From Vicinamibacteria bacterium (GTDB lineage: Bacteria; Acidobacteriota; Vicinamibacteria; Marinacidobacterales; Marinacidobacteraceae), in contig CAXXLQ010000004.1 in NCBI GenBank assembly GCA_963668695.2, positions 2,944,001-3,008,000 of the forward strand: 64,000 nucleotides of DNA, in the 5' to 3' direction. The position numbers and the translations under genes were made by a program. Below are positions 25,768-60,941 of this stretch, piece after piece (within the stretch, counting starts at the first letter, position 1; every line of letters begins with the position of its first letter). The notes under the pieces are model-generated. The model saw only the letters and a program-made list of their open reading frames with translations, did no database searches and was not told the origin of the DNA.

Positions 25768-26183
25768 CAGCCTGTGGTGAAACCCAGGCGGCGTTCGGCC
25801 GGCGATCCATCCCGGCCAAACAACCGGTAGTGAAACCCACGCGGCGTTCGGCCGGCGATCCATCCCGGCTGAACCGCGCCGCTTCGCGCCGCTCATCGTT
25901 GCGTTTCGGTCGCAAAACACCCGGGCCAGTTCTCCCGGTGGGGGCTCCTCCCTCACGCGCCTTGTCAGCCGGGCGCCTGACCGGCCTCGGCGCTCACGTG
26001 GGTTCCACCACCGGCTGTTCACCGCGCCGCTTCGCGCCGCTCATCGTTGCGTTTCGGTCGCAATACACCCGGGCCAGTTCTCCCGGTGGGGGCTCCTCCC
26101 TCACGCGCCTTGTCAGCCGGACCCCCACCGGGAGAACTGGGCCTCACCGGCCTCGGCGCTCACCCGGGTTCCACCACAGGCTG
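25768..26183 (+). mobile_element. Composite family A MITE (duplicated left end and duplicated core/right half; 3 cassettes)
   Basis: CAGCCTGTGGTGAAACCC...GGGTTCCACCACAGGCTG with perfect TTAA direct repeats at 25764-25767 and 26184-26187. Confidence 0.88.
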
Positions 26184-26186
26184 TTA

Positions 26187-27191
26187 ATGAAGGTCGGCTG
26201 GCTGGCTGCCTCCGGTCTGGTTCTCGGTTCCTGCGGTGGGAGCGGCGGCCCCCCGACCGCCCCGCCCACGGTGCCCTCCACGCCTCCGGCTTCCGCCAGC
26301 GTACGGGGGGTCCTTACGAAGACCGTGGAAGGCGGCCCCGTCGTCGGCGCCACGCTGAGCGCCAGCGGGATCACAGCGCGTTCGGGACCCGACGGATCGT
26401 TTGCTCTTGACCTGCCCGATGGGACGCATCGCCTTACGGTGTCCGGCCCCGGCATGGTCGAGCGCACCACCACAATCCGGGCGCCCTCGTCGGCCGTCGC
26501 GCTCGACGTGGTCCCCGACCCCGAAAACGGACCGTGGAACCTCGACTTCTACCGGGAGATCGCCCGCAACGGATCCGGGGGCGGAAAGCTTGAACCGCTC
26601 ACCCGTTGGGATTCCGAGCCGACCTTCTTCATCGATACCCGACCCGAGCCCACCACCAACGCGGAGATCCCGGAAGAGACGATCGAGTTCGTAAGGGAAG
26701 CGATCCGGGTCACCGTTCCCTTGCTCAGCGGAGGCCGGTACACGGCGGAACGCATCGTCGCAACGCGGGAGCCGCCCGAGGACATGACGCCCGGGACCGT
26801 CATCCTGCGTTGGAACGCCGCCGACGTCGCCAGGTTTGCGGACAATGCGGACGCATTCGCCAAACAGGTAGGAGGTTCGGAAAACGTGGTCGTATTCCGG
26901 CACATTCCCGAGACTTGGGCGGTCCACCACGAGATTGGCCACGTGATGGGCCTCTACCACCCACTGGACGGTCTGCGGCCGTCTCATATGTGGTATTCGG
27001 GCCACCTCGAGCCGCCGCACTTCACCAAGTGGGACATCTTCCACGCCCAGGTGCTCTACTCGCGCCCGGCGGGCAACGTGGACGTGGACGTGGATCCGGC
27101 CGGATTCGTCGTCGGCGGGCAGGCCGCTATGGTCAAACCGGCAGCCGGACCGGTGGTGTGTTCCTTTCCGGACCCAAAACCTCGACGCTGA
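26187..27191 (+). CDS. Lipoprotein with carboxypeptidase-regulatory-like domain and metzincin metalloprotease domain
   Basis: Lipobox LVLGSC; 'SGPDGSFAL' beta-sandwich; HEIGHVMGLYH followed by Met-turn-like SHMWY. Confidence 0.78.
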   Translation: MKVGWLAASGLVLGSCGGSGGPPTAPPTVPSTPPASASVRGVLTKTVEGGPVVGATLSASGITARSGPDGSFALDLPDGTHRLTVSGPGMVERTTTIRAPSSAVALDVVPDPENGPWNLDFYREIARNGSGGGKLEPLTRWDSEPTFFIDTRPEPTTNAEIPEETIEFVREAIRVTVPLLSGGRYTAERIVATREPPEDMTPGTVILRWNAADVARFADNADAFAKQVGGSENVVVFRHIPETWAVHHEIGHVMGLYHPLDGLRPSHMWYSGHLEPPHFTKWDIFHAQVLYSRPAGNVDVDVDPAGFVVGGQAAMVKPAAGPVVCSFPDPKPRR

Positions 27192-27209
27192 CCGAACTTT
27201 GCGCTCGGC

Positions 27210-28844
27210 TCAGCGCACGAGCAGGTTCCGGGCGCGGCGGTCCGCCGCCGGACTCTCGAGAGCGGACAGGAGCCACCCGCCGAAGTCCGGCCCGTAGCGG
27301 TTCGCGAATACGAGCGGGCTGAGCCTTCGCTCCTGCGGCGTGCCCCCGGGGAAGAGAACGTTTCGGGCGCGCAGGAAGCGCTGCCGGCGTTCTTCGTCCC
27401 GGCGCTTTGCGGCACGGACGCTCTTGGCTTCCAGATCCGTGACGATCGCGAGCACCTTCCCCCGGGCACGCCGGGCCGCCGCGGTCAGACTCTGGTCCAC
27501 CGCCCCGACGGTCCGCTCGATGTCTTCGAACGACGAGTTGAGAGCGTCCTTGGTGTCGGCGAAGGCCGCGACCGCAGCCGGGTCGGCAGCGCGCCGGTTG
27601 AGCGCGGCTTCGTCGCTGGCCGAAAGCTCATCGAAATCGATGCCGTCCCGATCCAGCACCCGCAGTTGCGACTGCGTCAGGATCGCAACCTGATGACGAG
27701 GGATGATCAGGGGTCGCGGGATCCGGTGGAGGTCGTAGAGGTCGCCCATCTGCGCGTGATAGGCGATTTCTGAGGGTCCGCCCACATACATCGCTGTCGG
27801 CAGCAGGAAATCCTGGACCAGCGGCCGCAGTAACACGGCCGCGCTCAGACGTTCCACGCAGCCTCCGAGAACCGCTTCTGGACGGCCCCCGGCGGAGTCC
27901 GTGCGGACCCGGGTCCGCACCCCGGTAGCCCCGGTGCAAAAGACCCCGTAGCCCTCCGCCGCGGCCTGTCCGTGAAACCCGATCTCCTCGATCTCGCGGG
28001 TTCGGGCCTCGATCTGGCGGCGGCCCTCGGCTTCGTGCCGGACCGCGGCCTCGAACACCGGAAAGGCGAGCCGCTTCAGGTCCGGCGCCGTCGGGTCCAT
28101 CACGACGAGCCCCGATCCCCGGGAGAGATGCAGCAGCAGGCGCCCGAACGCTTCGAGGAGGGAGCGGCCCGGCGCGTAGCTATCCTCGACCGCGGCGTAG
28201 AGGTCGGCCGAGTATTCCGTTTCGGGCAGGATCTGCCGGAGTTCTCGGTGCAGGTCGAGAACGGAGCCGTCGAGGATGCGGCGGAAGGCGGGTAAGCCGA
28301 GGTGTTCGTCTTCGGGCTGGTAGCGGAAACTGTGCGGGACCCCGGCGGCGTCCAGTACCCAGGCGCCCCGAATCTCTTCGAAGTTGTGATCGTCGCCCTC
28401 GATCCAGAAGACGGCGACGGCCGGCTGCCCGGTCTGAGCTTCCAGTTCACGCGCGGCCGCGACCGTGGACATGGCCTTGATGAGCGAATAGAGGGGACCG
28501 CCGAACAGTCCGGGTTGCTGGCCGGTGACGACTGCGAGGGTTTCGGGCCTGGCGAGCCGTTCCGCGGAAGCGAGTGCGCCGGCGTCGGCGCCCCAGGCCC
28601 GGTTGGTGGCGCCGATTACCTCAGCGGCGCGGGTCCGGGTGGGGTCGGCAGGTCGCGCGGTTCCGGCCCGCGCGAACGCGCCTGGCGTGAAGGGATCGGG
28701 AAGAAGCTCCCCAAAACGCCGCGGGTCGCGGGTCCAGGCGTCGAAGAAGGTGCCGGGGCGGACCCGAAGCGTGCGCAGCGGGCCGGCGGCGTCACCGGGA
28801 ACGGTCGGCGTGCTCCCCTTGAAAAGAGTTCCCGTAGCGTTCAT
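27210..28844 (-). CDS. bshC: Bacillithiol biosynthesis cysteine-adding enzyme
   Basis: VVTGQQPGLFGGPLYSLIKA; VFWIEGDDHNFEE; LLRPLVQDFLLPT.MYVGGPSEIAY; PQER. Confidence 0.92.
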   Translation of the reverse strand: MNATGTLFKGSTPTVPGDAAGPLRTLRVRPGTFFDAWTRDPRRFGELLPDPFTPGAFARAGTARPADPTRTRAAEVIGATNRAWGADAGALASAERLARPETLAVVTGQQPGLFGGPLYSLIKAMSTVAAARELEAQTGQPAVAVFWIEGDDHNFEEIRGAWVLDAAGVPHSFRYQPEDEHLGLPAFRRILDGSVLDLHRELRQILPETEYSADLYAAVEDSYAPGRSLLEAFGRLLLHLSRGSGLVVMDPTAPDLKRLAFPVFEAAVRHEAEGRRQIEARTREIEEIGFHGQAAAEGYGVFCTGATGVRTRVRTDSAGGRPEAVLGGCVERLSAAVLLRPLVQDFLLPTAMYVGGPSEIAYHAQMGDLYDLHRIPRPLIIPRHQVAILTQSQLRVLDRDGIDFDELSASDEAALNRRAADPAAVAAFADTKDALNSSFEDIERTVGAVDQSLTAAARRARGKVLAIVTDLEAKSVRAAKRRDEERRQRFLRARNVLFPGGTPQERRLSPLVFANRYGPDFGGWLLSALESPAADRRARNLLVR

Positions 28845-29440
28845 GGAGTTACCCGCCCGATCCGGCGCCAGGGGAAGACCCGGAAAACGGCTTCGCCGAT
28901 GATGGCGTCCCTGGACACCGTTCCCCAATGGCGGCTGTCGCTGCTCCCGCTCCGGTTGTCGCCGAGCACGAAGTAATCCCCGGCTTCGAGTGCCACCGAT
29001 ACCGCTCCCGGGCCATCCACCGCACGCGGGGCCTCGGCCCCGGAGGCGTTCGCCACCGGGGTCATGGCCTCCCGGAGCGCGCTCGCCGCGTCGGATCCCG
29101 GAAACACCTGAACATGATTGCCCGAAAACCGCACCGTATCTCCCGGCACCCCGATCACCCGCTTCACCATCACGGTGTCTTCGTCGGATGGATCATGAAA
29201 GAGGACGACATCGTCACGGGCGATGGAAGAGAGGCGGACGCCCAGCTTGTTCACCAGCACCCGCTCCCCGGAGCGGAGCGTAGGCGCCATGCTCGACCCC
29301 TGGATGCGGTACACCTGCGCACCGTACGCCAGCAAGACCCAGGCCGTGGCGCCGGCGATCGCCGCGGTACGGAGAAACCGCCACCGCGGCCGGAGGTTGC
29401 CCTTCGGCGCGATTCCGGAAGCCTCTGACATCCCGGTCAC
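28841..29440 (-). CDS. lepB: Signal peptidase I
   Basis: GSSMAPTL (Ser); VKRVIGVPGD (Lys); YFVLGDNRSGSSDSR. Confidence 0.93.
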   Translation of the reverse strand: MTGMSEASGIAPKGNLRPRWRFLRTAAIAGATAWVLLAYGAQVYRIQGSSMAPTLRSGERVLVNKLGVRLSSIARDDVVLFHDPSDEDTVMVKRVIGVPGDTVRFSGNHVQVFPGSDAASALREAMTPVANASGAEAPRAVDGPGAVSVALEAGDYFVLGDNRSGSSDSRHWGTVSRDAIIGEAVFRVFPWRRIGRVTP

Positions 29441-31347
29441 ATCCGTTCGGGAACGGGAATGCCAAGGAGCGCGAGCCCCTGTCGATGCTGGGTCAGAAAT
29501 GTCTCCACTGCGTAGGTTCGCAGCAACCGTTTGGTGGGATCCGGCTCACCGGCGATGCGGTAGCGCTCGTAGAAGCCATTGAAACGCTGCGCTCCTTCGA
29601 AGGCCCAGCGGGCGAGGACCTGCGGGTCTTCGCCGGCGGCGGCCGCCGCGGCCGTTTCCCGGAGTTCGAGCGCCCCCCGGAGAAGGATCCAGAGGTCGGC
29701 TGCTTCTTCGGGGTCCAGTTCGGCGAGGCGTTCGTTGAACCCCTCCGGCGGCAGGGGACACACGTCCGGCGCGGCACGCTCGAGCCGCGCGAGGATTTTC
29801 GCGGCCCGCACCGCCGCGTACTGCAGGTACGGCCCGGTGGCCCCTTCGAGGCTGAGGGCCTCCTTGAGATCAAAGACGATGAGCTGATTCTTGGTCACCC
29901 GCACCATCCGGTAGCGCAGCGCGCCGACCGCGATCGCCAGCGCCACGGACCTTTGCTCTTTCGCAGGAACGTCAGGATTCCGCGCTGCGACTTCTTCGGT
30001 CGCCCGTTCGAGGAGCGCGTCGAGGAAGTCATCGGCCTTGACTCCGACCCCCTTGCGGCCGGAAACCTCCACTGCACCGGCTCCCGGGGCGGCCACCAGA
30101 CCGAGCGCCTCCACCGTGGCCGGCGTCAGCGCCACTATTTCGTACGACAAATGGCGGGTTCGGGCCCGGTCGACTTCGGAGGTCAGCCGGGCCACGGCTT
30201 CCTGGACGACCTGTTGGGGGTAGGACTGCCGGGCGTCGATCACGTGATGGACGAGCGCCGCCGACCCGAAGCTCGGAGCGTCGGCATCGCCGGGCTCGGT
30301 GGTGCTGATCCAGGCGCGCCGGCCGTCGGGATACTCGTAGAACCGGCGCCAGCGGAAGTCGCGATCCAGGAGACCGAGCTGCCACAGCTGGTAGGCGATG
30401 TCCTTGCCCACGTACGTCACGGTGGCGTTGGAGCGAACGATGACCTTTTCGCCGTCCTGGGCCAGATCGGTATCCATCACCCAGCAGCCGCGGTTCTTGC
30501 CGGACTCGCTCAGGCGGATGGCGCCCCGGTCCCGCAGCAACTCGAAGGCGCGTTCCCAGAAGTGGAGGTGAAGGATCGACTTCTCACACGGCAAGAGGTC
30601 GTAGCGGACCCCGATCCGTTCCATGGTTTCGAGGTGCCGGTGCGCGATGGCGTCTGCCACGATGGCGCCCATCTCCGCCCAGGGCTCTTCGCCGTGCTCG
30701 AGGCCGTGGAGCGCCTCCTGGCGAGCGGCGCGCCCTTTCGGATCCTCCTCGACCCAGCGGGACACCTGGGTGTAGAGATCCCAGCACAGATAGTCGAAGC
30801 GTGGTTTTGCTACGAGGCGTCGCACCTCCTGCGCATCCAACCCCCGAAGTCGAAGGAATCCGAGGACTACATCCGCGACCTGTACTCCAGTGTCGTCGAT
30901 GTAGGTCTGAACCTCGATCCGGTGCCCCAGATACCTGAGGATGCGGGCAAAGGCGTCACCGAGGGTGGCGTTTCTCAGATGGCCGATGTGGGCCGCCTTG
31001 TTCGGGTTGATGCTGGTGTGTTCGACGACGTGGACCCCTGGGGGGGCCTGGGCGCCTGCTCCGGCAAGGGTGTGCCGGATCCACATTTCCCGGTTCAGAA
31101 AGACATTGACGTACCCGGGACCGGCCACTTCCACCCTCCGGACCTCGGGCCGCTCCGAGAGCGCCTCCGCGAGGGTCTCCGCGATCTCTCGGGGGGGACG
31201 CCGCAGGTGGCGCGCCAATCCGAACGCAGCGGGGAACGCGAGGTCCCCCTGATCCGGTGACGGGGGAATCTCGGACACCACCGGGAAGTCCGGCGCTCCC
31301 GCGTTGGCGGCGATTTCGCGGATGACTTCCTCAAGCGCGGCGAACAT
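29437..31347 (-). CDS. argS: Arginine--tRNA ligase
   Basis: VAGPGYVN; EHTSINPNKAAHIGHLRN; SGRKG; GPYLQYAAVR; LGIPVPERM. Confidence 0.95.
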   Translation of the reverse strand: MFAALEEVIREIAANAGAPDFPVVSEIPPSPDQGDLAFPAAFGLARHLRRPPREIAETLAEALSERPEVRRVEVAGPGYVNVFLNREMWIRHTLAGAGAQAPPGVHVVEHTSINPNKAAHIGHLRNATLGDAFARILRYLGHRIEVQTYIDDTGVQVADVVLGFLRLRGLDAQEVRRLVAKPRFDYLCWDLYTQVSRWVEEDPKGRAARQEALHGLEHGEEPWAEMGAIVADAIAHRHLETMERIGVRYDLLPCEKSILHLHFWERAFELLRDRGAIRLSESGKNRGCWVMDTDLAQDGEKVIVRSNATVTYVGKDIAYQLWQLGLLDRDFRWRRFYEYPDGRRAWISTTEPGDADAPSFGSAALVHHVIDARQSYPQQVVQEAVARLTSEVDRARTRHLSYEIVALTPATVEALGLVAAPGAGAVEVSGRKGVGVKADDFLDALLERATEEVAARNPDVPAKEQRSVALAIAVGALRYRMVRVTKNQLIVFDLKEALSLEGATGPYLQYAAVRAAKILARLERAAPDVCPLPPEGFNERLAELDPEEAADLWILLRGALELRETAAAAAAGEDPQVLARWAFEGAQRFNGFYERYRIAGEPDPTKRLLRTYAVETFLTQHRQGLALLGIPVPERM

Positions 31348-31390
31348 CGGCGCGGAGTCTAGTGGCTGGACCGGGCCGGCCCCGATCTAA

Positions 31391-31660
31391 CAACCTATGG
31401 TGAAACCCAGGCGGCCCAGTTCTCCCGGTGGGGGCTCGCCCGGCGATGCATCCCGGCTGAACCACTCCGCTTTGCTCCATTCTGCGTTGCGTTTCGGTCG
31501 AAATACACCCGGGCCAGTTCTCCCGGTGGGGGCTCCTCCCTCACGCGCCTTGTCAGCCGGGCCCCCACCGGGAGGACTGGCCCCACCGGGAGAACTGGGC
31601 CTCGCCCCCACCGGGAGGACTGGCCGGGCTCGGCGCTCACCCGGGTTCCACCACAGGCTG
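31391..31660 (+). mobile_element. Family A MITE carrying 5 cassettes (slots A, B, C tandem, D)
   Basis: CAACCTATGGTGAAACCC...GGGTTCCACCACAGGCTG; flanks CTAA/TTAG. Confidence 0.88.
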
Positions 31661-31688
31661 TTAGTGCCTGGTGTCGCGCCGGCGGAAG

Positions 31689-32663: not shown

Positions 32664-32808
32664 GCGCCGGATTCTCCCACTCGGTGCCGAGACGGCGCGA
32701 GCGCCGCCCTTGGCAGGCGGTCGCAAAAGGCAGCCGGCATCAGTCCGCGGCGCGGAGCGCTGCGTGGGGGGAGAGGGGGTGAGGAGGGGTTTCCCCAAGG
32801 GTCGTTAG

Positions 32809-33029
32809 CAGCCTGTGGTGAAACTCTGAAGGCATCCATTCGCGGCGCGCAGCGCCGCGGGGGTGGGGTGTGGGGAGGGGTTTCCCCTCCCCACGAAAGA
32901 CGGTGGAGTGAATCGCGCAGCGATTCGCCCCACCAACCTGTGGTGAAAGCGCCCCGCACGCACACAAACCCCCAGATTCGGCGCGCGGGACGTCCCGGGG
33001 CCCGTGCGGGGTGCTTTCACCACAGGCTG
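32809..33029 (+). mobile_element. MITE-like element, family B (same termini as family A, different interior)
   Basis: CAGCCTGTGGTGAAA...TTTCACCACAGGCTG; flanks TTAG/TCAG; internal hairpin GTGGGGAGGGGTTTCCCCTCCCCAC; related fragment at about 32745-32800. Confidence 0.78.
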
Positions 33030-34895
33030 TCAGATGAGTCCCGCCACGCTCCGAATGGCAAGGTCAAAGCGGTTGAAGGGCGGCATCACGTAGACGCCGG
33101 CGGCGCTCTCCCGCGCCGCGGCCACCATGTCCCGGGCGACCGAGACGCCGACCTCTCGCGCGCGCTGCCGGGACGGCGCCGCCGCCAATCTGTCCCGGAC
33201 CGATTGCGGGACGCTCATTCCCGGAACCTCGTTGTGGAGGAACTCGGCGTTTCTGGAACTCACCAGCGGAAGGACCCCCACGATCACGGGAACTCCGAAG
33301 TGGCGCACCTCGGCCAGGAATCTATCGAGCAGGCTGGATTCGTACACCGGCTGGGTGAGGCAGTACTGAGCGCCGGCCTCCACCTTCTTCTCGAACTTGC
33401 GCATCTCGGCATCCGGGTCGGCGGCCGCCGGGTTCGCACCGACCCCGATGTAGAAGGGAAGGGCGGCGCCGAGAGGGTTTCCGGCGAGGTCGAGGCCGTG
33501 GTTCAGGCCGCCGAGGATGCGGACGAGGCCTACCGAGTCCACGTCGAACACCGGCGTCGCGTGCGGGTAGTCCCCGAGCTTCGGCGGGTCGCCGGTGACG
33601 GCGAGCAGATTGCGGATGCCGAGAGCGTGAGCCCCCAACAGGTCCGCCTGGATTCCGATCAGGTTGCGGTCCCGGCACTGGTAGTGGAGGATCGTCTCCA
33701 CCTGACCGCTCCGCTCGAGAAGCGCCGCGAACGCGATGGCGCTCATGCGGGCGGTGGCCCTCGGTCCGTCCGCCACGTTCACGAAGCGGATGCCGGCATC
33801 GGCGAGTGCCCGCACCTTGTCGAGGAACTTGCCGGGATCGGCGCCGCGCGGGGGATCCATCTCCACCGAGACGGCGAATTCGCCGTCCAGCAGGTGGCGC
33901 GCGAGGCTCGAACGGTCGGCCACCTCGACCGCGGCAACCCCGGCAGGTTCCGTTTCCTCCGAGACTCTGGCGGCGGCCGGCAACGGCGCCTTGACGCGCG
34001 CCGCCCGGGAGGCGGCGGACGCCGCCCGGACCACGCCGGCAACGGCGCCGATATGTTCGGCGCCGGTGCCGCAACATCCGCCGATCAGCGACACCCCGAG
34101 CCGGAGATACCGCTTCGCATAGTGGGCCACGTAGTCGGGAGACGACGGATACAGGAAGCGCCCCTCGACCCGCTCCGGAATGCCGGCGTTCGGCTGGGCG
34201 ACGAGCGGGAGACTCACCGCGTCCCGCATGCGCTCGAGGGCCGTGAGCGTGGTGTCCGGCCCCACCCCGCAGTTCGAGCCGACAGCGTCAGCGCCTTCCC
34301 GGGCAAGCGACTTCGCCGCCTGGTCCGCCGAAACGCCAAAGAGAGTCGTCGCCTGTTCGGAAAACGTCATCAGCACGATGACCCCGATGTCGGGCGCCAA
34401 CTCTCGCGCGGCAGAAAGCGCGAGACGCGCCTCGGCAAGGCTGGTGAAGGTCTCGATCAGGACGGCGTCCACCCCGCTCTCGACGAGTGCGCTGATCTGT
34501 TCCCGGAATCCCGCGGCGAACTCCGGGGGCTTCTCCTCGTCGAGCGGACCGACGACTTCGCCGCTCGGTCCCACGGATCCGAGGACCAGCACTCCCGGCC
34601 GGACCGCGCGGCGCGCCACGGCAACTCCGGCGGCGTTGATGGCCGCAACTTCGGAGGCGAGACCGTGCCGGCCGAGCTTCCAGCGATTCGCCCCGAAGGT
34701 GTTGGTGCTGACCACCTCGGCACCGGCCCCGACGTGGGCGGCGTGGATCGCCCGGACCCGGTCCGGGTCGGAGCGATTGAGATCGTCGAACGACCGCCTC
34801 GCCGCGACCCCGCCGGTATAGAGCGCCGACCCGATCGCGCCGTCGCCGACCCGGGGCCGTTCCCGCAAGAAAGCGGTCAGTTCGGAACGCCGCAT
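33030..34895 (-). CDS. Bifunctional homocysteine S-methyltransferase / 5,10-methylenetetrahydrofolate reductase (YitJ-like)
   Basis: DGAIGS; TNTFGAN; GGCCGTG; SVEMDPPRG; CRDRNLIGIQADLLG; TGDPP; AEFLHNEVPG. Confidence 0.93.
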   Translation of the reverse strand: MRRSELTAFLRERPRVGDGAIGSALYTGGVAARRSFDDLNRSDPDRVRAIHAAHVGAGAEVVSTNTFGANRWKLGRHGLASEVAAINAAGVAVARRAVRPGVLVLGSVGPSGEVVGPLDEEKPPEFAAGFREQISALVESGVDAVLIETFTSLAEARLALSAARELAPDIGVIVLMTFSEQATTLFGVSADQAAKSLAREGADAVGSNCGVGPDTTLTALERMRDAVSLPLVAQPNAGIPERVEGRFLYPSSPDYVAHYAKRYLRLGVSLIGGCCGTGAEHIGAVAGVVRAASAASRAARVKAPLPAAARVSEETEPAGVAAVEVADRSSLARHLLDGEFAVSVEMDPPRGADPGKFLDKVRALADAGIRFVNVADGPRATARMSAIAFAALLERSGQVETILHYQCRDRNLIGIQADLLGAHALGIRNLLAVTGDPPKLGDYPHATPVFDVDSVGLVRILGGLNHGLDLAGNPLGAALPFYIGVGANPAAADPDAEMRKFEKKVEAGAQYCLTQPVYESSLLDRFLAEVRHFGVPVIVGVLPLVSSRNAEFLHNEVPGMSVPQSVRDRLAAAPSRQRAREVGVSVARDMVAAARESAAGVYVMPPFNRFDLAIRSVAGLI

Positions 34896-34936
34896 GAACC
34901 GCTCCAACTCGCGGTGTTCGCCACCGGCAGGGTTAG

Positions 34937-35187
34937 CAGCCGGTGGTGGAACCCGGGTGAGCGCCGAGGCCGGTGAGGCCCAGTTCTCCCGGTGGGGCCA
35001 GTTCTCCCGGTGGGGGCCCGGCTGACAAGGCGCGTGAGGGAGGAGCCCCCACCGGGAGAACTGGCCCGGGTGTATTTCGACCGAAACGCAACGACGAACG
35101 GCGCGAAGCGACGCGGTTCAGCCGGGATGGATCGCCGGCCGAGCCCCCACCGGGAGAACTGGGCCGGCTGGGTTTCACCACAGGCTG
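34937..35187 (-). mobile_element. Family A MITE, reverse orientation, 4 cassettes
   Basis: CAGCCGGTGGTGGAACCC...GGGTTTCACCACAGGCTG with perfect TTAG direct repeats. Confidence 0.88.
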
Positions 35188-35266
35188 TTAGGCTCAGCAG
35201 GAGGCTGCGAGAGTTCGACGGTGCGTCCCCCCGGCCGACGGGTTTCCGCTTCCTTCGGGTCGAAAG

Positions 35267-35484
35267 TAGTCTGTGGCGAGAGCCGGGCGGCATCGGCTCG
35301 CGGCGCGGAGCGCCGCGGGGGAGGGGTGTGGGGAGGGGTTTCCCCGCCCCACGAAAGACGATGGCGCGGATCGCGGAGCGATTCGCGGCATCAACCCGCG
35401 GGGAGAGCGTCCCGCACGCACAAACTCCGCGCGATCCGACGCGTCTGTCGTCGCGGGAACCGTGCGGGAGGCTCTCCCCACGGG
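35267..35484 (+). mobile_element. Diverged family B element
   Basis: Colinear similarity to 32809-33029 (CGCGGCGCG.AGCGCCGCGGGGG.GGGGTGTGGGGAGGGGTTTCCCC.CCCCACGAAAGACG...GCGATTCGC); boundaries approximate. Confidence 0.7.
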
Positions 35485-35796: not shown

Positions 35797-35814
35797 GGGG
35801 TGGAATTGTATTAG

Positions 35815-36265
35815 CAACCGGTGGGCAAAGTGGCGTGAGCGCCGAGGCCGGCGAGGCCCAGTTCTCCCGGTGGGGGTCCGGCTGACAAGGCGCGTGAGGA
35901 AGGAGCCCCCACCGGGAGAACTGGCCCGGGTGTATTTCGACTGAAGCGCAACGATGAGCGACGCGAAGCGGCGCGGTGAACAGCCGGTGGCGGAACCCGC
36001 GTGAGCGCCGAGGCCGGTGAGACGCCCGGCTGACAAGGCGCGTGAGGAAGGAGCCCCCACCGGGAGAACTGGCCCGGGTGTATTTCGACCGAAACGCAAC
36101 GATGAGCGGCGCGAAGCGACGCGGTCAGCCGGGATGGATCGCCGGCCGAGCCCCCACCGGGAGAACTGGGCCGCGTGGGTTTCATCACGGGCTGTTTGGC
36201 CGGGATGAATCGCCGGCCGAGCCCCCACCGGGAGAACTGGGCCGCGTGACTTTGTTCACAGGCCG
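35815..36265 (-). mobile_element. Composite family A MITE, reverse orientation, 5 cassettes
   Basis: CAACCGGTGGGCAAAGTGGCG...CGTGACTTTGTTCACAGGCCG; duplicated right half and left end as in 25768-26183. Confidence 0.85.
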
Positions 36266-36267
36266 CT

Positions 36268-37332: not shown

Positions 37333-37604
37333 TGCAGTACCCCGCTTCGGAAACGTGGACTCGGGAAGCTCCGAATGCTACCAGTCGAGGCTGCCCGGGA
37401 CGCGCCGGAGAACGCCCCCGGGAGGGCGGCGCCACCGGGCTTTCAGGCGAAAGCAGCGGTCGGCATTCCGGCTGCCGCGCTCGCTCGCTCCCGGACCGCA
37501 GGGGGGGTCGCCTCTCCGCGGGAGGCGATGCCGGCCAGCGGCCGGCATTCCCTGGGGTCCACTTCCAAGCGGGCAAAAAACCGATGGCCTCGAACCCTGT
37601 TCGC

Positions 37605-37736
37605 TGCCGGCGATGTCGCTGCGCGCCGCTCATCGTTGCGTTTCGGTCGAAATACACCCGGTATTCCTCCCTCACGCGCCTTGTCGGCCAGGCGCCTCAC
37701 CGACCTCGGCGCTCACGCGGGTTTCACCACCGGCGG
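37605..37736 (+). mobile_element. Partial family A MITE (core and right end, no cassette)
   Basis: CGCTCATCGTTGCGTTTCGGTCGAAATACACCCGGTATTCCTCCCTCACGCGCCTTG...GGGTTTCACCACCGGCGG then CTAA; left boundary approximate. Confidence 0.75.
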
Positions 37737-37761
37737 CTAAGACGCGATAGGCTCCGGCGAC

Positions 37762-38589: not shown

Positions 38590-38610
38590 CTTCCGTTTAC
38601 AAACCTTTAG

Positions 38611-38789
38611 CAGCCTGTGAACAAAGTGACGCGGCGTTCGAGCGGCGATGCATCCCGGCTGAACCGCGTCGCTTCGCGTCGCTCATCGTTGCGCTTCGGT
38701 CGAAATACACTGGGTATTCCTTCCTTGCGCGCCTTGTCAGCCGGGCGCCTCACCGCTCTCGGCGCTCACGTCACTTCATCCACAGGCTA
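38611..38789 (+). mobile_element. Family A MITE, cassette-free
   Basis: CAGCCTGTGAACAAAGTGACG...CGTCACTTCATCCACAGGCTA; flanks TTAG/CTAG. Confidence 0.87.
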
Positions 38790-38792
38790 CTA

Positions 38793-49992: not shown

Positions 49993-50065
49993 GACGGCTC
50001 CCGAGCGCACCCGACCGCGGTGCCTATACTGCGCAAGCGCCCTTTCCATCGCGAGCCCCCTTTCC

Positions 50066-53590: not shown

Positions 53591-53612
53591 GCCCCGCCCC
53601 GCGGGGCGGGGC
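53591..53612. terminator. Perfect 22-bp GC palindrome between convergent genes, possible bidirectional terminator
   Basis: GCCCCGCCCCGCGGGGCGGGGC; no U-tract. Confidence 0.4.
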
Positions 53613-53644
53613 GAGACGCAGACTGCCGTTCCCGTTTGGCGGTG

Positions 53645-55102
53645 CTACCGCCGTGACGTCGGAAACACCACGACGCTCTCGTTTCCGTCGGCGCCGACCG
53701 TAGCTACTCCGAACAGGTAGTTGTCAATGACGAGGTTCTCGAACGTGAACTCCGTCACGTCCCCCACGAACCTCGCATCCGTCCATTGGGGCGCGGTGGT
53801 ATCTCGCCAATAGACGCGGTAACCCGCAAGATTCTCCGACGGCGCCGGATCCCACGACAGGACGGCGGACGCCCGGACCGCCCCGGCAATGCCGACGTTC
53901 GCCGGCGGCGCCGGGGCCCAGGCGAGCCCGGCAAGGGTGATCACGTTGACTCCGGTCAGCTTCGCGGCGTAGTCGAAGTTCACTCCTTCGATCACATCCC
54001 CGTACTCGATTCCGTCCTCGACCCGGATGTCCTGATGTTGGCGCCGGTAGTTCTCGTGCGTTTCCATGATGCGGACGCCGGGGAAGCCGGCGTCGTTGAA
54101 AGGACGATGGTGGCCGCCGCGTCCGAAGCGATCGAGCCGGTAGATCATCTTCGCCTCGAGATTCGGGATGTAGAGGTCGGTCATCCGGGCGACGTAGCGC
54201 GCGAGCTGCCGGGAAACCCCGTCGACCTCGCCCCCGGTGACGCGCCTCCGCCGCCGGGACTCGTCGCTCTCGGTAACCGGGGTCGGCTCCGAAAACACCC
54301 GGAAAACATCGTTGCGGATCACTCCGTCCACCCCCTCGATGTTCCCGATCATGTCGTTGTTCAGGACGGCTTCGATGTTCCAGCGCTGCTCCCGGGCGAC
54401 GCTGGCCATATACCGGCCGCCATAGAGCCCCTGCTCCTCTCCGGAGAGACCGGTCAGGATGATGGTGGCGGCAAAAGAGCCGGCGTGTTGGCTCAGCACC
54501 CGGGCGGCCTCGATCACGCCGGCCATCCCGCTCGCGTTGTCGTTGGCCCCGGGAGAATCGTCCGTGAAGTTGTTCGAGTCCGAGATGCGGCTGTCGATGT
54601 CGCCGGACATGATCACGTAGCGGTTCGGTTCGGTCGCTCCCCGAAGGGTCGCCAGCACGTTCACGACTTCGGTGTCCACCGGAATACGTGATCCCTCTTC
54701 TCCAGGGATCACGGTGCTCTGGTAGGAGACCTCAATGCAACCCCCGCACGCATCGGAGATCTGGGTGAGTTCCGCGTGAATCCAGCGCCGCGCGGCGCCG
54801 ATACCGCGGATCTCGCTCTCGGTATCGGAAAGTGTGTGCCGGGTTCCGAACCCCACCAGCGTGCGGATGTCGGCTTCGATCCGGTCCGCGGAAACGGCCT
54901 CGATGAGGTCGTACATCCGGGGATCCCGGGCGGGGGGTTCACCGGACTGGGCGAGGCCAGCCGCCGGCAGGGCCAAGCCAGCCGCCGGCAGGGCCAAGCC
55001 AGCCGCCGGCAGGGCCAAGCCAGCCGCCGGCAGGGCCAAGCCAGCCGCCGGCAGGGCCAGGGACAGCAGAAGGGGAAGGAACGGAAGAACGCGCAGTGAC
55101 AT
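53645..55102 (-). CDS. Secreted M28-family metallopeptidase with C-terminal FN3-like domain
   Basis: FGTRHTLS; GDIDSR; PGANDNASG; SGEEQGL; NNDMIG; DRFGRGGHH; HQD. Confidence 0.88.
   Translation of the reverse strand: MSLRVLPFLPLLLSLALPAAGLALPAAGLALPAAGLALPAAGLALPAAGLAQSGEPPARDPRMYDLIEAVSADRIEADIRTLVGFGTRHTLSDTESEIRGIGAARRWIHAELTQISDACGGCIEVSYQSTVIPGEEGSRIPVDTEVVNVLATLRGATEPNRYVIMSGDIDSRISDSNNFTDDSPGANDNASGMAGVIEAARVLSQHAGSFAATIILTGLSGEEQGLYGGRYMASVAREQRWNIEAVLNNDMIGNIEGVDGVIRNDVFRVFSEPTPVTESDESRRRRRVTGGEVDGVSRQLARYVARMTDLYIPNLEAKMIYRLDRFGRGGHHRPFNDAGFPGVRIMETHENYRRQHQDIRVEDGIEYGDVIEGVNFDYAAKLTGVNVITLAGLAWAPAPPANVGIAGAVRASAVLSWDPAPSENLAGYRVYWRDTTAPQWTDARFVGDVTEFTFENLVIDNYLFGVATVGADGNESVVVFPTSRR
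54956..55060 (-). repeat. Coding tandem repeat, 5 x 21 bp (LALPAAG), in the signal peptide region
   Basis: GCCAGCCGCCGGCAGGGCCAA x5 on the + strand; last unit has 1 mismatch. Confidence 0.93.
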
Positions 55103-55163
55103 GCGTCTGGTTGTATCACCTCCGGGGCTTCCGCCGTGCGTGCGAGGGGAGCCCTTCCCGCCG

Positions 55164-55676: not shown

Positions 55677-55712
55677 GGTAGCGACCGGGGCGCGCGCTAC
55701 GATGGACCTGAG

Positions 55713-55882
55713 CAGCCTGCAATCAAGACCGCACGGTGTTCGAACGGTGATGCATCCCGGCTGAGTCGCTTCGCTCTGCGTTGCGATCCGGTCGGAATAC
55801 AGCGGGTATTCCACCCAAATCGCGCCTTGTCAGCCGGGCGCCTGACCGTTCTCGGCGCTCGCGCCGTCGTATCCACCGGCTG
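55713..55882 (+). mobile_element. Diverged family A MITE, cassette-free
   Basis: CAGCCTG...CATCCCGGCTGA...GAATAC..GTATTC...CGCGCCTTGTCAGCCGGGCGCC...TATCCACCGGCTG then CTAG. Confidence 0.8.
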
Positions 55883-55903
55883 CTAGCCAGGAGGCGAGAG
55901 CGA

Positions 55904-56995
55904 ATGGCGTTTTATGACAATCCCGGGGGCAACGGGCCCTGGTCGGGACTCGGCGGGGGAGGCCCCGGCATGCCCGATCTGGAGGGCTTCTTGAAGCGTT
56001 TCGGCGGAGGCGCCCGACGAACGGCCCTGCGGGTCGCGATCGGGGTCGTGGTGGTGATCCTGTTTTTCACCTCGGTCTACCAGATCCAACCGGACGAAGC
56101 GGGGATCGTCACCCGGTTCGGCCGCTACACGCGGGTGACCGATCCGGGGCTGCACTTCGTCGTGCCCTTCCTCGAGTCGGTGACCAAGGTCCCGGTAGAG
56201 CGCCAACTCAAGGAGGAGTTCGGGTTCCGGACGGTCGAGGCGGGAACTCGGACCACCTACGACGACCGGCTGTTTCTCGATGAGTCCCTCATGCTCACCG
56301 GCGACCTGAACGTCGCGGTCGTCGAGTGGATCGTCCAGTTCAAGGTTCAGGATCCCCGGGCGTACCTGTTCAATGTCCGTGAGATCCGCTCGACATTCCG
56401 CGACATGAGCGAAGCCGCGATGCGGGATTCGGTCGGGGATCACAGCGTGGATGAGGTTCTGACCGTAGGCCGGGAACAGATCGCCGCCCGGGCGAAGGAT
56501 CTCCTTCAGGAGATGAACAATCACTACGAAACCGGCATCAGCGTCCAGCAACTCGTCCTCCAGGACGTGAACCCGCCGGATTCGGTGAAGCCGTCATTCA
56601 ACGAGGTGAACGAGGCGATTCAGGAGAAGGAGCGGCTTACCAACGAAGCGCTTGCCGACTACAACCAGGCGATCCCTCGGGCTCGCGGTGACGCCGAGCG
56701 GGTCATCCAGGAGGCCGAGGGCTACGCGGCGGAGCGGGTGAACCGGGCTCGGGGCGAGGCGGCCCGCTTTGAGGCCATCTATGCCGAGTACCGGAACGCG
56801 CCGCGGGTGACCAGAGTCAGGATGTATCTGGAGACCCTGTCCGAAGTCATGCCGAAACTCGGGCAAAAGGTGATCCTCGGTGAGAGCGGCGCGAACATCC
56901 TGCCGCTCCTCAACCTGAACGGCGCGCGGCGGCTACCACCCGATCCGGGTGGACCGGGCTCGGGCCAGCAGCCCGAACGGGAGGAATCACGATGA
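55904..56995 (+). CDS. hflK: FtsH protease modulator HflK
   Basis: AGGAGG RBS; TM then SPFH domain; MLTGDLN; QDVNPP; IPRARG; YRNAPRVTRVRMYLET. Confidence 0.93.
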   Translation: MAFYDNPGGNGPWSGLGGGGPGMPDLEGFLKRFGGGARRTALRVAIGVVVVILFFTSVYQIQPDEAGIVTRFGRYTRVTDPGLHFVVPFLESVTKVPVERQLKEEFGFRTVEAGTRTTYDDRLFLDESLMLTGDLNVAVVEWIVQFKVQDPRAYLFNVREIRSTFRDMSEAAMRDSVGDHSVDEVLTVGREQIAARAKDLLQEMNNHYETGISVQQLVLQDVNPPDSVKPSFNEVNEAIQEKERLTNEALADYNQAIPRARGDAERVIQEAEGYAAERVNRARGEAARFEAIYAEYRNAPRVTRVRMYLETLSEVMPKLGQKVILGESGANILPLLNLNGARRLPPDPGGPGSGQQPEREESR

Positions 56996-57921
56996 AACGC
57001 ACGCTGCCGATCCTGGGGACTCTGGTGGGACTTATGCTCCTTTCCTCATCGACCTACACCATCCGTGAAACGGAACAGGCGATCATTACCCTGTTCGGCG
57101 ATCCGGTGGGCGATGCGATTGTGGAACCGGGCCTCCACTTCAAGCTCCCCTTCATTCATCGCGTAACCCGTTTCGACCAGCGCTGGCTGCCTTGGGACGG
57201 GGACGCCAACCAGATCACGACCCGCGACAAGAAGTTCATCTGGGTGGATACCTACGCACGCTGGCGGATCGCCGATCCGCTGCTGTTCTTCCAGTCGGTT
57301 CGCGACGAGCGCGGCGCCCAGAGCCGCCTCGACGACATCATCGACGGCGAAACCCGAAACGCGGTGGCGAGCTACGACCTGATCGAGATCGTGCGGATCA
57401 CGAACCGGAACTTTGAGATGACCGAGGACCTCATTTCCTTCGCCAACGAGGACGCCGTGCGGGAGATCGAGCTCGGGAGGAACGGGATCACCCGCAGCAT
57501 CCTGGAGAAGGCCTCGGAAGTCACCCCGAGCTTCGGCATCGAACTCGTGGATGTCCGCATCAAGCGGGTGAACTACGTGGAGGAAGTCCGGGCCAAGGTG
57601 TATGAGCGGATGATCTCGGAGCGCCAGCGGATCGCCGAACGCAGCCGTTCGGAGGGTCAGGGACGCGCCGCCGAGGTTCGCGGCCAGCGGGAGCGCGAAC
57701 TCAAGACCATCCAGTCGGAGGCTTTCCGCCAGGCTGAGGAGATTCGCGGCCGGGCCGATGCCGCGGCTTCCGCCATCTACGCGGGCGCCTACCAGCGCGA
57801 TGCCGACTTCTACCGGTTCATGAAATCCCTCGAGACCTATCGCACCGCCCTCGACGAAGGAGTCACCCTCGTCATCGGGAGCGACAGCGAATTCCTCGAT
57901 TTCCTCAGCCGGTCCCGCTGA
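56992..57921 (+). CDS. hflC: FtsH protease modulator HflC
   Basis: PGLHFKLPF; TRDKK; WRIADP; FGIELVDVRIKR; RMISER; RSEG; FYRFMKSLETY. Confidence 0.95.
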   Translation: MKRTLPILGTLVGLMLLSSSTYTIRETEQAIITLFGDPVGDAIVEPGLHFKLPFIHRVTRFDQRWLPWDGDANQITTRDKKFIWVDTYARWRIADPLLFFQSVRDERGAQSRLDDIIDGETRNAVASYDLIEIVRITNRNFEMTEDLISFANEDAVREIELGRNGITRSILEKASEVTPSFGIELVDVRIKRVNYVEEVRAKVYERMISERQRIAERSRSEGQGRAAEVRGQRERELKTIQSEAFRQAEEIRGRADAAASAIYAGAYQRDADFYRFMKSLETYRTALDEGVTLVIGSDSEFLDFLSRSR

Positions 57922-58137
57922 GGTCAGGCGGGCCCGCCGCGCGTTCCGAGACCTCCTGGGAACGCGCGGTCGGGGGCGAGCCATGTCCTCGACTCTCTGA
58001 CGCTCAGAAATCCGTTTCCGGCCGGCTCGTGCTTCGCCGGGCGGGATCGGGGGCCTCATCTCTTTCGCGTTGCTGCGCCCCGGTAGTTCCGGCATGATTC
58101 GGAGGCGCGGATTTCTTTCCCCCAAAGGTTGAGCCCC

Positions 58138-60723
58138 ATGTCCAAGACGACGCCGTTCCCATCCCGCCTCCGCTTCTGGCCGGGTGTTTTGCTGCTTGCC
58201 GCCGCGCTACTGAGCGCGCCGGCCTTCTCCCAGGATGGAACGCCCACCATCGAGGACAAGACCTCCGGGATGACTGCCATTTCCGGCTTCGTCCCGATCT
58301 ACTGGGATGACGCCACCGGCAAGCTGTATGCCGAGTTCGCCGAGATGGACGAAGAGTTCCTGTATTCGGTTTCGGCGGCTTCCGGCCTCGGCAGCAACCC
58401 GATCGGGCTGGACCGGGGGCAGATCAGCCGGCGCGCCGTGCTGAAGCCGATACGCGTTGGGCCGCGCATCCTGCTCATGGAGCCGAACTACCGCTATCGG
58501 GCCGTCAGCGACAACCCCGACGAGGTTCGCGCGGTGCAGGACGCCTTCGCCCCCTCGGTGCACTGGGGGTTCCAGGTGGCTGCCGAGACCGGGGAGCGTG
58601 TCCTGGTGGACATGACGGATTTCCTACTGCGCGATGCCCACGGTTCCGCGGCGCGGATCCAGCGCGCCGGGCAGGGGACCTACCGGCTGGATCGGGACCG
58701 CAGCGTTTTCCACCTGCCGAACACCAAGGGTTTCCCCGACAACACCGAACTGGAGACCATGCTGACCTTCACCACCGATCAACCCGGCCGCCTGGTCTCC
58801 GGCGTCGCCGCCAGCGGGGACGCGGTGACTCTCCGGCACCACCATTCGCTGGCCCGGCTGCCGGGACCCGGCTTCGAGATCCGGGTGGCGGACCCGCGCA
58901 TCGGGGTGAACGGCCCGACCTACATGGACTACGCGACTCCCATTGACCAGCGGATGACCGTCCGGCTCGCGGCCCGCCACCGCCTGGAGAAGCGGGATCC
59001 CTCGGCCGAACGGTCGGAACCGGTGGAACCGATCGTCTACTACCTCGACCGGGGAGCTCCGGAGCCGGTCCGCACCGCGCTGCTCGAAGGCGCGCGGTGG
59101 TGGAACGAGGCGTACGAGGCGGCAGGATTCATCAATGCGTTCCAGGTCGAGCTGCTGCCGGAGGGTGCGGACGCCCAGGACATCCGCTACAACATGATCC
59201 ACTGGACCCATCGCCGCACGCGCGGCTGGTCCTACGGCGGGGGTGTCCAGGATCCCCGTACCGGAGAAATCATCAAGGGCAACGTGAACCTGGGCAGCCT
59301 GCGGCTCCGCCAGGATCACCTGCATGGCATCGGTCTGGTGGCGCCCTATACCGGGGCGTCCGGGATGGCTCCCAGCGGCCTGCTCGACATGGGCCTGCCG
59401 CCGGATCCCGACGGGCCGCACTCCTGCGGTCTCTCGGCGGTGCCCGGCTTCTCCTATCTGGCGCAAGTGGGTGAGGGAGCCTCACCGGTGGACCTCGCCC
59501 TCGCGCGCGTGGCGCAGCTCTCCGCCCACGAGGTCGGCCACACCCTCGGTTTCCCGCACAACTACATGGCTTCGACCTATGGCGGCCGAGCGAGCGTCAT
59601 GGACTACCCGGCGCCGCTCGCCGTCCTCGAGGACGGCGTGGTCAAGCTGGATGACGCCTACGGGGTAGGGGTCGGTTCCTACGACATCCTCTCGGTCCGC
59701 TGGGCCTACGGCCACTTTCCCCCGGATGAGACCGCCGCCGCGCTCGACGCCATCATGCAGGAAGGGCTGATGTCGGAAACCCGCTTCATGGCCCACACCG
59801 ACAACTACATCGGCGCCGGCGCCCACCCGCTCGCCTCAGTGTGGGACAACGGCGGAGATCTCGTCCGGCATCTCGCGCGCGAGATCGACATTCGGCGGGC
59901 GGGTCTCGACGCCTTCGGAGAAAACGTCATCCGGCCCGGCGAACCCATGTCGCTGCTGGAGCCGGTACTGGTGCCGCTCTATCTGCACCACCGCTTCCAG
60001 ATGAAGGCGGCGATGAACACCATCGGCGGCCAAGAGTACTACTACGCGGTCCGCGGCGACGGACAGCGCCCGGTGGCGCCCATTCCGGGCGACCGCCAGC
60101 GGGAGGCGCTGGAAATCGTCCTCCGTACTCTCGACACAGACTTCCTGGCGCTGCCGGAACGGATCGTGGAGCTCATCCCGCCGCCGGCTTACCGCGAAGC
60201 AGGGGGCGAGAATTTCGGCGGAAACACCGGCCTCGTCTTTGACCCGCTCGCCGCGGCGGATACCTCGGCGGACTACACCGTGGAACTCCTGCTCCATCCG
60301 GAACGCATGGCCCGCCTCGTGAACAACCATGCCCTGGACCCCGAACAGCCCGGACTCGAGGAAGTTCTCGACCGGTTGGTCGACAAGACCTGGGGCGCCG
60401 GCGAGCCGGGGGACGGCTACCGGCGGGCGGTGCAAGACGCCGCCGAGCGGAGCGTGCTGAACGGGATGATGCGGGAGGCGATGAACCCCGACAACCCGGC
60501 GAGGGTGCGTGCGGTCCTCGAAGATCGCCTGATGGCGCTCGGCGGGACGCTCGCCGGCATGGATGACGGGACTCCCCACGAGGCGCTCGCGATGGCCGAC
60601 ATTCGTCGCTTCGCCGACCGCGACGAGAGCCTGGATCCGAACGCCAGCCGCCCGGCGCTGCCGCCGGGTTCGCCCATCGGGGGCGCGAACGCGTCCGGAA
60701 CACGCCGTATCCCGGGGCGCTGA
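58138..60723 (+). CDS. Secreted zinc-dependent metalloprotease (EcxA-like, DUF5117/DUF4953 type)
   Basis: Signal peptide; ADPRIG; PIVYYLD; DPRTGEIIKG; HEVGHTLGFPHNY; SVMDY. Confidence 0.88.
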   Translation: MSKTTPFPSRLRFWPGVLLLAAALLSAPAFSQDGTPTIEDKTSGMTAISGFVPIYWDDATGKLYAEFAEMDEEFLYSVSAASGLGSNPIGLDRGQISRRAVLKPIRVGPRILLMEPNYRYRAVSDNPDEVRAVQDAFAPSVHWGFQVAAETGERVLVDMTDFLLRDAHGSAARIQRAGQGTYRLDRDRSVFHLPNTKGFPDNTELETMLTFTTDQPGRLVSGVAASGDAVTLRHHHSLARLPGPGFEIRVADPRIGVNGPTYMDYATPIDQRMTVRLAARHRLEKRDPSAERSEPVEPIVYYLDRGAPEPVRTALLEGARWWNEAYEAAGFINAFQVELLPEGADAQDIRYNMIHWTHRRTRGWSYGGGVQDPRTGEIIKGNVNLGSLRLRQDHLHGIGLVAPYTGASGMAPSGLLDMGLPPDPDGPHSCGLSAVPGFSYLAQVGEGASPVDLALARVAQLSAHEVGHTLGFPHNYMASTYGGRASVMDYPAPLAVLEDGVVKLDDAYGVGVGSYDILSVRWAYGHFPPDETAAALDAIMQEGLMSETRFMAHTDNYIGAGAHPLASVWDNGGDLVRHLAREIDIRRAGLDAFGENVIRPGEPMSLLEPVLVPLYLHHRFQMKAAMNTIGGQEYYYAVRGDGQRPVAPIPGDRQREALEIVLRTLDTDFLALPERIVELIPPPAYREAGGENFGGNTGLVFDPLAAADTSADYTVELLLHPERMARLVNNHALDPEQPGLEEVLDRLVDKTWGAGEPGDGYRRAVQDAAERSVLNGMMREAMNPDNPARVRAVLEDRLMALGGTLAGMDDGTPHEALAMADIRRFADRDESLDPNASRPALPPGSPIGGANASGTRRIPGR

Positions 60724-60729
60724 TCCGCC

Positions 60730-60760
60730 AGGGCGGCGGGGCCGGTGCTCCGCCGCCCCT
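60730..60760. terminator. GC hairpin after the metalloprotease stop
   Basis: AGGGCGGCGGGGC-CGGT-GCTCCGCCGCCCCT between convergent genes. Confidence 0.5.
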
Positions 60761-60762
60761 AG

Positions 60763-60941
60763 CAGCCTGTGGACAAAGTCACGCCGCGTTCGACCGGCGA
60801 TCCATCCCGGCTGAACCGCGCCGCGATGCGTCGCTCATCGTTGCGCTTCGGTCGAAATACACTCGGTATTCCTCCCTCGCGCGCCTTGTCAGCCGGGCGC
60901 CTCACCGGTCTCTGCACTGACGTCACTTTATCCACAGGCTG
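60763..60941 (+). mobile_element. Family A MITE, cassette-free reference-like copy (179 bp)
   Basis: CAGCCTGTGGACAAAGTCACG / CGTCACTTTATCCACAGGCTG with perfect CTAG direct repeats. Confidence 0.9.

Follow-up and report, generated by a model that had tools for sequence, protein, structure and literature searches.

A TA-duplicating foldback element of Vicinamibacteria with a conserved fold on one particular strand

RUP of Streptococcus pneumoniae and the Correia element (NEMIS/CREE) of Neisseria are TA-duplicating bacterial miniature inverted-repeat transposable elements (MITEs) that have been linked to IS630-type transposition, and ERIC (IRU) of the enterobacteria is an imperfect palindrome of ~127 bp that lies in intergenic regions under transcription and carries inserts at set positions within it. 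ERIC reportedly shows structural conservation at the RNA level together with compensatory changes; we found no study of compensatory changes in ERIC itself in the open literature. According to the parts of the reports drawn on here, compensatory changes among copies have been described for bcr1 of the Bacillus cereus group, a dispersed, transcribed repeat of ~155 bp that resembles a mobile element (PMC3184786), and for REPINs, non-autonomous hairpin elements present in hundreds of copies (PMC3116915). TA-duplicating hairpin MITEs and compensatory changes in such repeats (bcr1, REPINs) are already known. Here we analysed a 64-kb stretch of a Vicinamibacteria genome (the window; G000:C4:2944001-3008000), in which nhmmer and a covariance model (CM) recognise nine copies or composites of one repeated element. 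They belong to a family of non-coding foldback MITEs in Vicinamibacteria that duplicates TA on insertion, and in our judgement it is probable that the fold of a single strand, called R below, is selected among the lineages of this family that multiply. R is complementary to the strand written out in the initial annotation of the window, and is the minus strand for the five copies named there.

A fold was predicted with RNAalifold from 12 copies of 10 genomes, giving a three-branched hairpin of 66 pairs, 14 of them with compensatory changes, around a core that is unpaired and conserved in sequence. The window copies and 88 loci of relatives, 94 copies together, were aligned by a CM of that fold. 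Because this multi-genome alignment was made to fit the structure, its pairing figures are to be read with caution: of 6101 cells, 96.7% are standard pairs, double changes occur in 39 of the 66 pairs (428 cells), and none of 500 shuffles reached any of five pairing measures. Sliding the partners by 1-3 columns left 32.8-41.7% of the cells paired and 25-82 cells with double changes. Pairing is kept by compensatory changes, as the initial annotation had proposed from five copies. Some G·U pairs are nearly invariant, as at alignment columns 90-249 (93 of 94 copies). When 434 genomic copies were scanned for mutual information without reference to structure, 18 column pairs emerged as reciprocal best, and 12 of these fall on the predicted helices: eight in the long stem, three in a local hairpin (59-75, 62-72, 64-70) and one that closes the core (87-120). 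A 164-nt version with the same architecture was found in five genomes of three other families, with 93.2% of cells paired and double changes in 36 of 63 pairs.

The evidence from the interior of the terminal inverted repeats (TIRs) is weaker than that from the inner stems. The co-variation noticed there by the initial annotation is present, but linkage is strong (Cramer V 0.62-0.95) among the TIR-interior pairs 14, 15, 19 and 20 and the pair 87-120, which together set two terminal-repeat types apart, so that this part of the signal is largely that of two linked subfamilies. The inner stems assort freely, with 262 haplotypes in the 434 copies and all four gametes in 37 of 45 pair combinations. 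Among the ten commonest dimorphic pairs, five are transversion-type double changes with no wobble intermediate (e.g. CG/GC at 35-149).

Selection on a folded RNA or single-stranded DNA had been suggested for these repeats; a single-stranded fold does appear to be selected, but the folding strand is the complement of the one written out at the time. The predicted RNA fold of the reference copy has an energy of -90.3 kcal/mol on that strand versus -112.1 on R, and the consensus fold of 100 insert-free copies one of -19.2 versus -73.4. DNA parameters give -56.3 kcal/mol for R and -46.7 for the other strand. The mismatches, too, are one-sided. A strand-neutral process would make each mismatch type and its mirror equally common, and in a single-stranded helix G·U and G·G are the least destabilising mismatches, A·C and C·C the most. 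Read on R, the long stem holds 1875 G·U cells versus 142 of the mirror A·C, and 400 G·G cells versus 45 of the mirror C·C. In an alignment made without reference to structure, G·U is commoner on R than on the opposite strand for 41 of 44 informative pairs (sign test, 1.6e-9). Wobble on R exceeds its mirror by 522 to 42 in the multi-genome alignment and by 99 to 26 in the distant 164-nt version, both of which were selected with the R-strand model, a choice that favours G·U. Wobbles make up about 9% of pairs, or ~4.3 G·U-on-R pairs per copy, and some are nearly fixed; at pair 25-161, G·U on R is the majority state (388 of 434 copies). The initial annotation had named G-U-tolerant changes beforehand as a test, and they are present in large excess, on R; on its own strand they read as A·C mismatches. 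The conserved feature is the fold of one particular single strand, R.

The copy frequency of these states suggests where the constraint acts. Of the wobble states found in at most four copies, 28 are on R and 38 on the opposite strand; for states found in at least 21 copies the figures are 18 and 1. As rare states are symmetric and common ones biased, mutation supplies both kinds of mismatch, and it is only R-compatible variants that are seen amplified. Unpaired columns show no consistent transition bias; with this and the symmetry of rare variants, mutation bias was rejected as the source of the asymmetry. The count of G·U on R is 4.0-4.5 per copy, versus 0.2-0.4 for the mirror, in all five gene contexts. 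The asymmetry is thus a property of the element itself, and selection in situ according to gene orientation was rejected because every context shows it alike.

Resident copies, by comparison, drift and decay. In 15 orthologous comparisons (one of a duplicated locus and three others sharing one comparison site), 11.3% of the paired and 10.4% of the unpaired sites differ. The copy at 55711 differs from its orthologues in three related genomes (G001, G004 and G008) mostly by uncompensated, one-sided changes, and disruptions of the fold average 1.44 per copy in young copies, which have a near-identical sibling, versus 2.59 in old, isolated ones. The 60760 copy and its G001 orthologue are separated by three double changes at ~94% background identity; we read orthologous pairs with several double changes as replacement or conversion by another member of the family. 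From the frequency spectrum we infer that the constraint acts among lineages that multiply or establish themselves, and not as upkeep of resident copies.

The host genome has 4.10 Mb, 67.5% G+C and a completeness score of 91.7%, and the sequencing runs containing the window sequence bear either the label sponge metagenome or a coded name for the organism. An nhmmer profile built from 69 copies gave 885 hits in the whole genome, 884 of them non-overlapping and 434 full length. The basic element is 185 nt long, too small for a transposase gene, and full-length copies cluster at ~185, 203, 221, 239, 257 and 275 nt; the steps of 18 nt between these classes correspond to an 18-nt module that is absent or inserted up to five times. 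In 368 anchored copies the termini, which are inverted repeats, read TA-R-CAGCC...GGCTG-Y-TA (R and Y being nucleotide codes here), and the outermost pair of the element co-varies (AT 222, GC 153). All 15 of the other genomes of the genus carry the element, as do 21 of 24 in the bacterial family; a CM search across the class found it in 69 of the 121 genomes sampled, which represent 40 of 65 genera. A plasmid collection searched with the element gave no match.

Insertion sites are polymorphic between related species. The 60760 copy is absent from G004, which has a single TA at that site. Among the full copies of relatives with enough flank (n = 134), both flanks could be placed in this genome for 49, and 24 of these 49 sites are element-free here, with a computed gap of exactly 2 nt in 12 of the 24. 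Readable empty sites hold one TA and filled sites a TA on both sides. In the clean empty-site cases the base after the TA belongs to the element, and the target duplication is therefore 2 bp, not 4. At the orthologous site of the 55711 copy in two further genomes, G014 and G010 (L110, L111), only ~15-20 nt resembling the right end of the element are left; this remnant could be a footprint of excision or deletion rather than a clean empty site.

The nine copies or composites in the window are as follows, with the strand that folds.

1902-2104, minus strand: 203-nt copy with one 18-nt module in the left arm; CM 147.9 bits.
25765-26186, minus strand: nested double element; outer unit 25765-25821 and 26021-26186, inner full unit 25819-26019.
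31388-31663, minus strand: 276-nt copy with five 18-nt modules, stem GCCCGG/CCGGGC; CM 85.6 bits over 31410-31604.
34934-35190, plus strand: 257-nt copy in the opposite orientation; CM 90.3 bits on the plus strand over 34974-35165.
35812-36267, plus strand: second nested double element, in the opposite orientation; outer unit 35812-35977 and 36193-36267, inner unit 35979-36196; CM 108.4 bits on the plus strand over 35978-36197.
37567-37739, minus strand: truncated or degenerate copy, right two thirds recognisable; nhmmer positions 61-185 at 37615-37739; CM 68.3 bits.
38608-38792, minus strand: full 185-nt copy, no inserts, stem GAGCGG/CCGCTC; CM 214.6 bits on the minus strand.
55710-55885, minus strand: 175-nt copy, old and decaying, with 10 nt deleted internally, stem GAACGG/CCGTTC; CM 150.1 bits.
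60760-60944, minus strand: full 185-nt copy, no inserts, nhmmer positions 1-185, TA on both sides; CM R1 217.8 bits on the minus strand and 56 bits on the plus strand.

The stem variants on which the initial annotation was built are all present: GACCGG/CCGGTC with AAAGT/ACTTT in the 60760-60944 copy, GGCCGG/CCGGCC with AACCC/GGGTT in the 25765-26186 composite, GCCCGG/CCGGGC in the 31388-31663 copy, and GAGCGG/CCGCTC (38608) and GAACGG/CCGTTC (55711) in the repeat listing. The inner stem CCCGGCTGA/TCAGCCGGG and the conserved core occur in all five. What had been taken as a simple copy at 25768 was read correctly as sequence, but belongs to a nested double element, of which it forms the split outer unit.

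The 18-nt module occurs genome-wide at five fixed places of the element: after profile column 28 (171 copies, forward), column 62 (47, reverse), column 107 (171, forward), column 139 (135, reverse, single or double) and columns 144-147 (121 inserts, reverse). Its instances in the window lie at 1930-1950, 25918-25940, 31413-31435, 31518-31535 and 31555-31625. The sites after columns 28, 62, 107 and 139 are unpaired places of the fold, as is the junction loop at column 56/57, where the nested 'double' subfamily carries a full unit inside another. The inserts thus avoid most stems and lie at or beside unpaired places, with the 144-147 site as the exception. There are at least 68 simple composites genome-wide; junction letters and orientation are identical in 68 of 68, suggesting that the composite multiplied as a unit. 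The window also holds two tandem arrays, one of ~13 units with an 18-nt period within an apparent open reading frame (ORF) at 2386-2709, unrelated in sequence to the 18-nt module, and one of five units with a 21-nt period at 54928-55059.

Orientation relative to transcription clearly matters. On a crude gene map of GC3-rich ORF calls covering 77% of the chromosome, R is antisense, i.e. the poorly folding strand has the mRNA sense, in 154 of 223 copies in co-directional gene gaps and in 76 of 97 copies in tight gaps, where both genes are long and close. The youngest copies already show the bias, by 31 to 16 (31 of 47 with R antisense). Strand and replichore are not linked (104/103 and 95/118; Fisher p = 0.28), and an explanation by replication strand was rejected because of this. 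A called stop codon is abutted by 87 of 369 copies. RNA-library contigs were available from four libraries of one study; they give no strand, ends or level, DNA carry-over is possible and uncovered parts are uninformative. Contig depth is 29-38 over the gene block at 55.9-60.7 kb (plus strand, between MITE copies; 55767-60792) versus 0-6 in most other bins, and the block has the look of a strongly expressed unit with one copy at either end. The strandless contigs run from its genes into both flanking copies, where the mRNA sense is the poorly folding strand.

By eye, the core of the folding strand (the complement of, for example, window 60860-60880) shows a GGGAGG motif with a GTG 8-9 nt later, which could be a relic of the ribosome-binding site and start codon of a parent element. 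A small R-strand ORF behind GGGAGG was judged non-coding, also by eye, the variable core positions being non-synonymous (alignment A1).

A partner enzyme was sought among known transposase families. The genome has three loci with an IS630-family DDE_3 domain (four matches, two of which are halves of one gene). Within the genus, 6 of 16 genomes have DDE_3, among them the four richest in element candidates; as these genomes are related, such counts lack independence. The IS630 copies found start with TA-GTGTGG, TA-GTGTCG, TA-TACA or TA-GTAGAG. No IS630 copies with ends matching R-CAGCC were found in this genus, nor any with MITE-matching ends in five distant genomes, with 30 loci examined per search. 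A search of the genome (completeness 91.7%) for Y1_Tnp (PF01797) gave no match, control genomes giving hits, and a RAYT or IS200 partner was rejected because the genome has no Y1 gene. A search for an autonomous parent through pairs of end motifs outside the known copies produced seven candidates longer than 600 bp, none with a transposase. Split copies were considered as insertion sequence ends and rejected, as they proved to be nested double elements.

Two of the seven candidates are near-identical segments of ~3 kb bounded by inverted MITE ends (G000:C4:57120-60064, L114, and 3830938-3833972, L113), which encode F420-0:gamma-glutamyl ligase and an F420-dependent NADP oxidoreductase-like gene. 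They look like cargo moved by MITE-type ends. A second repeat family of ~229 nt, at window 32806-33033 and ~35257-35484, has the outer ~20 nt of the MITE and a different interior, and gave 38 BLAST hits spanning that interior. As the second family and the 3-kb cargo share the outer 20 nt with different insides, the ends alone allow movement; the fold goes with a tenfold greater success of the main family. IS630-family insertion sequences also sit exactly at the TA adjoining MITE ends (L118:921-2074, at G000:C4 ~667045-668198, and L121:1400-2544), indicating that MITE borders serve as landing sites for other TA-targeting elements.

Taken as a whole, we think it probable that this is a TA-duplicating MITE whose single R-strand fold is selected among multiplying lineages. 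The three-branched R-strand hairpin, with its ~66 pairs and unpaired conserved core, is what successful copies share. The filter on the fold would act when copies multiply or settle, and the folded molecule would be RNA, transcribed from copies in the R sense. Our preference for RNA over single-stranded DNA is held more weakly, RNA being a little better than an even choice and DNA a substantial second. It is based on the wobble content, the three-way core with conserved loops, the dependence on orientation to transcription and the lack of a single-strand transposase.

Several observations weigh against this reading. DDE cut-and-paste transposition is two-fold symmetric, and we know of no reason why it should require a strand-specific fold; a symmetric DDE reaction explains neither an RNA nor a single-stranded DNA. 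R-sense copies are not significantly better folded (1.60 versus 1.92 disruptions per copy; p = 0.33), and the 144-147 module site falls inside the 33-41/143-151 stem as placed by hmmalign, its true placement being ambiguous. The crude gene map and the choice of two alignments with the R-strand model belong here as well. For the RNA part, G·T and G·G are also the most stable mismatches in DNA, and among co-directional copies only about 30% have R as the mRNA-sense strand, which is awkward for an RNA role of residents. The RNA-library data are strandless contigs open to DNA carry-over. Scanning the 60760 copy for promoter and terminator consensus gave 0 and 0, with no terminator-like tail, and an RNA of the full hairpin cannot start inside the element.

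The strongest competitor, unlikely in our view but still a serious candidate, is that the folded strand is single-stranded DNA: excision, copying or integration would pass through a strand-specific DNA hairpin, and only variants that fold would multiply. REPINs provide a precedent, as hairpins with compensatory changes that are thought, in the part of the report used here, to move as single strands (PMC3116915). The asymmetry is intrinsic, independent of local transcription and confined to amplified variants, and the orientation bias already seen in the youngest copies would fit oriented insertion. DNA parameters also favour the R fold, the R sense is a minority in transcripts, and a hairpin-spanning RNA would have to start outside the element. 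Against this stand the absence of any Y1/HUH transposase hit in the genome and the TA duplication and TIRs, which point to a DDE enzyme of IS630 type acting on duplex DNA. Furthermore, orientation is not linked to the replichore, unlike in IS200/IS605 elements, where it is tied to the replication fork. Extrusion of a cruciform would not produce strand asymmetry either, since each mismatch would then be present as one G·T and one A·C across the two hairpins. A further proposal, common to both kinds of nucleic acid and one that we find slightly more doubtful still, is that multiplication of the MITE needs a strand-specific folded RNA or DNA strand with the conserved three-way core as a recognised part, e.g. 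an RNA cofactor or a single-strand intermediate within an otherwise symmetric DDE reaction. To our knowledge, a strand-specific folded nucleic acid is a step in no IS630/Tc1-type mechanism.

It is improbable that the co-variation reflects duplex recognition and subfamily history, with both ends matching one transposase and a few founders amplified. The linked pairs that define the two terminal-repeat types would be expected from such a history, and the outer ~20 nt shared with the second family and the 3-kb cargo suggest that ends suffice. However, the inner stems assort freely, and the best covarying partner of a column is its pairing partner, not a linked neighbour. Nor does this explanation predict G·U and G·G on one strand only, or covariation in the local hairpin and at 87-120, which are not terminal repeats.

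We consider it very improbable that each copy is a structured RNA module or ribozyme useful to the host and selected at its own locus. This idea would account for the unpaired core residues conserved across families of the class, nearly invariant G·U pairs such as the one at columns 90-249, the position of copies behind genes, some abutting a stop codon, and the contigs that extend from neighbouring genes into copies. Yet orthologous copies diverge in stems and core as fast as in the flanks, old copies lose pairing, and many sites are empty in close relatives. The suggestion of a ribozyme-like or known structured RNA found no support, as no Rfam family or known ribozyme matched: Rfam 15 gave no hit at gathering score over the 64-kb window and, at a permissive threshold, only two chance-level miRNA matches (E 3.7 and 4.9) on the 60760 copy, and a terminator-like tail is lacking. 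Just as little likely is arm-to-arm correction at the DNA level, by template switching or mismatch repair in a hairpin whose fold has no function, which had been raised at the outset: the transversion-type doubles that lack a wobble intermediate speak for it, as do the three double changes between the 60760 copy and its G001 orthologue, which resemble conversion or replacement more than stepwise mutation, but correction should leave perfect pairs and no strand-specific excess of G·U or G·G, whereas each copy retains several G·U-on-R pairs, with G·U even in the majority at some positions, mirror mismatch types are almost absent, and the old orthologous copy decays uncorrected.

MITEs are usually thought to need only their ends, while here a whole one-strand fold is filtered among multiplying copies. 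The evidence is purely genomic, and mirror-mismatch counts with their copy-frequency dependence can be repeated on other families. If the fold is needed for movement, it would reveal an unrecognised step in a very common class of bacterial transposition; if it acts in transcripts, hundreds of orientation-dependent RNA hairpins would shape operon expression. The copies make up a few per cent of this symbiont genome, and the family offers data from natural mutagenesis, ready for use, on a structure of 185 nt.

We found no papers on 'Marinacidobacterium' in the open literature. Three points go beyond what we found there: the asymmetry between mirror mismatches, the way in which it varies with copy frequency, and a core that is conserved throughout the class. 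The part of the bcr1 report used here holds no statement of a strand-specific wobble excess or of copy-frequency dependence; bcr1 is flanked by 5-bp direct repeats, the present element by TA, and transcription has been demonstrated for bcr1, whereas the present element is known from genomic sequence and strandless RNA-library contigs (PMC3184786). REPINs, as described in the part of their report drawn on, depend on a single-copy Y1 (RAYT) gene, a type without a hit in this genome. Unlike REPIN/RAYT or IS200/IS605 systems, the element duplicates TA, has classical inverted termini and shows no orientation tied to the replichore. From ERIC/IRU it differs in sequence, host and copy number. RUP and Correia are likewise small and non-coding with TIRs and a duplicated TA, lie in hundreds of intergenic places, fold into a hairpin over the whole element and vary in site between close relatives. 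Unlike these, the present family has no resident IS630 with matching ends among those found, and it combines ~55 nt of pairing per arm and a branched core conserved across the class with 18-nt modules and nested units.

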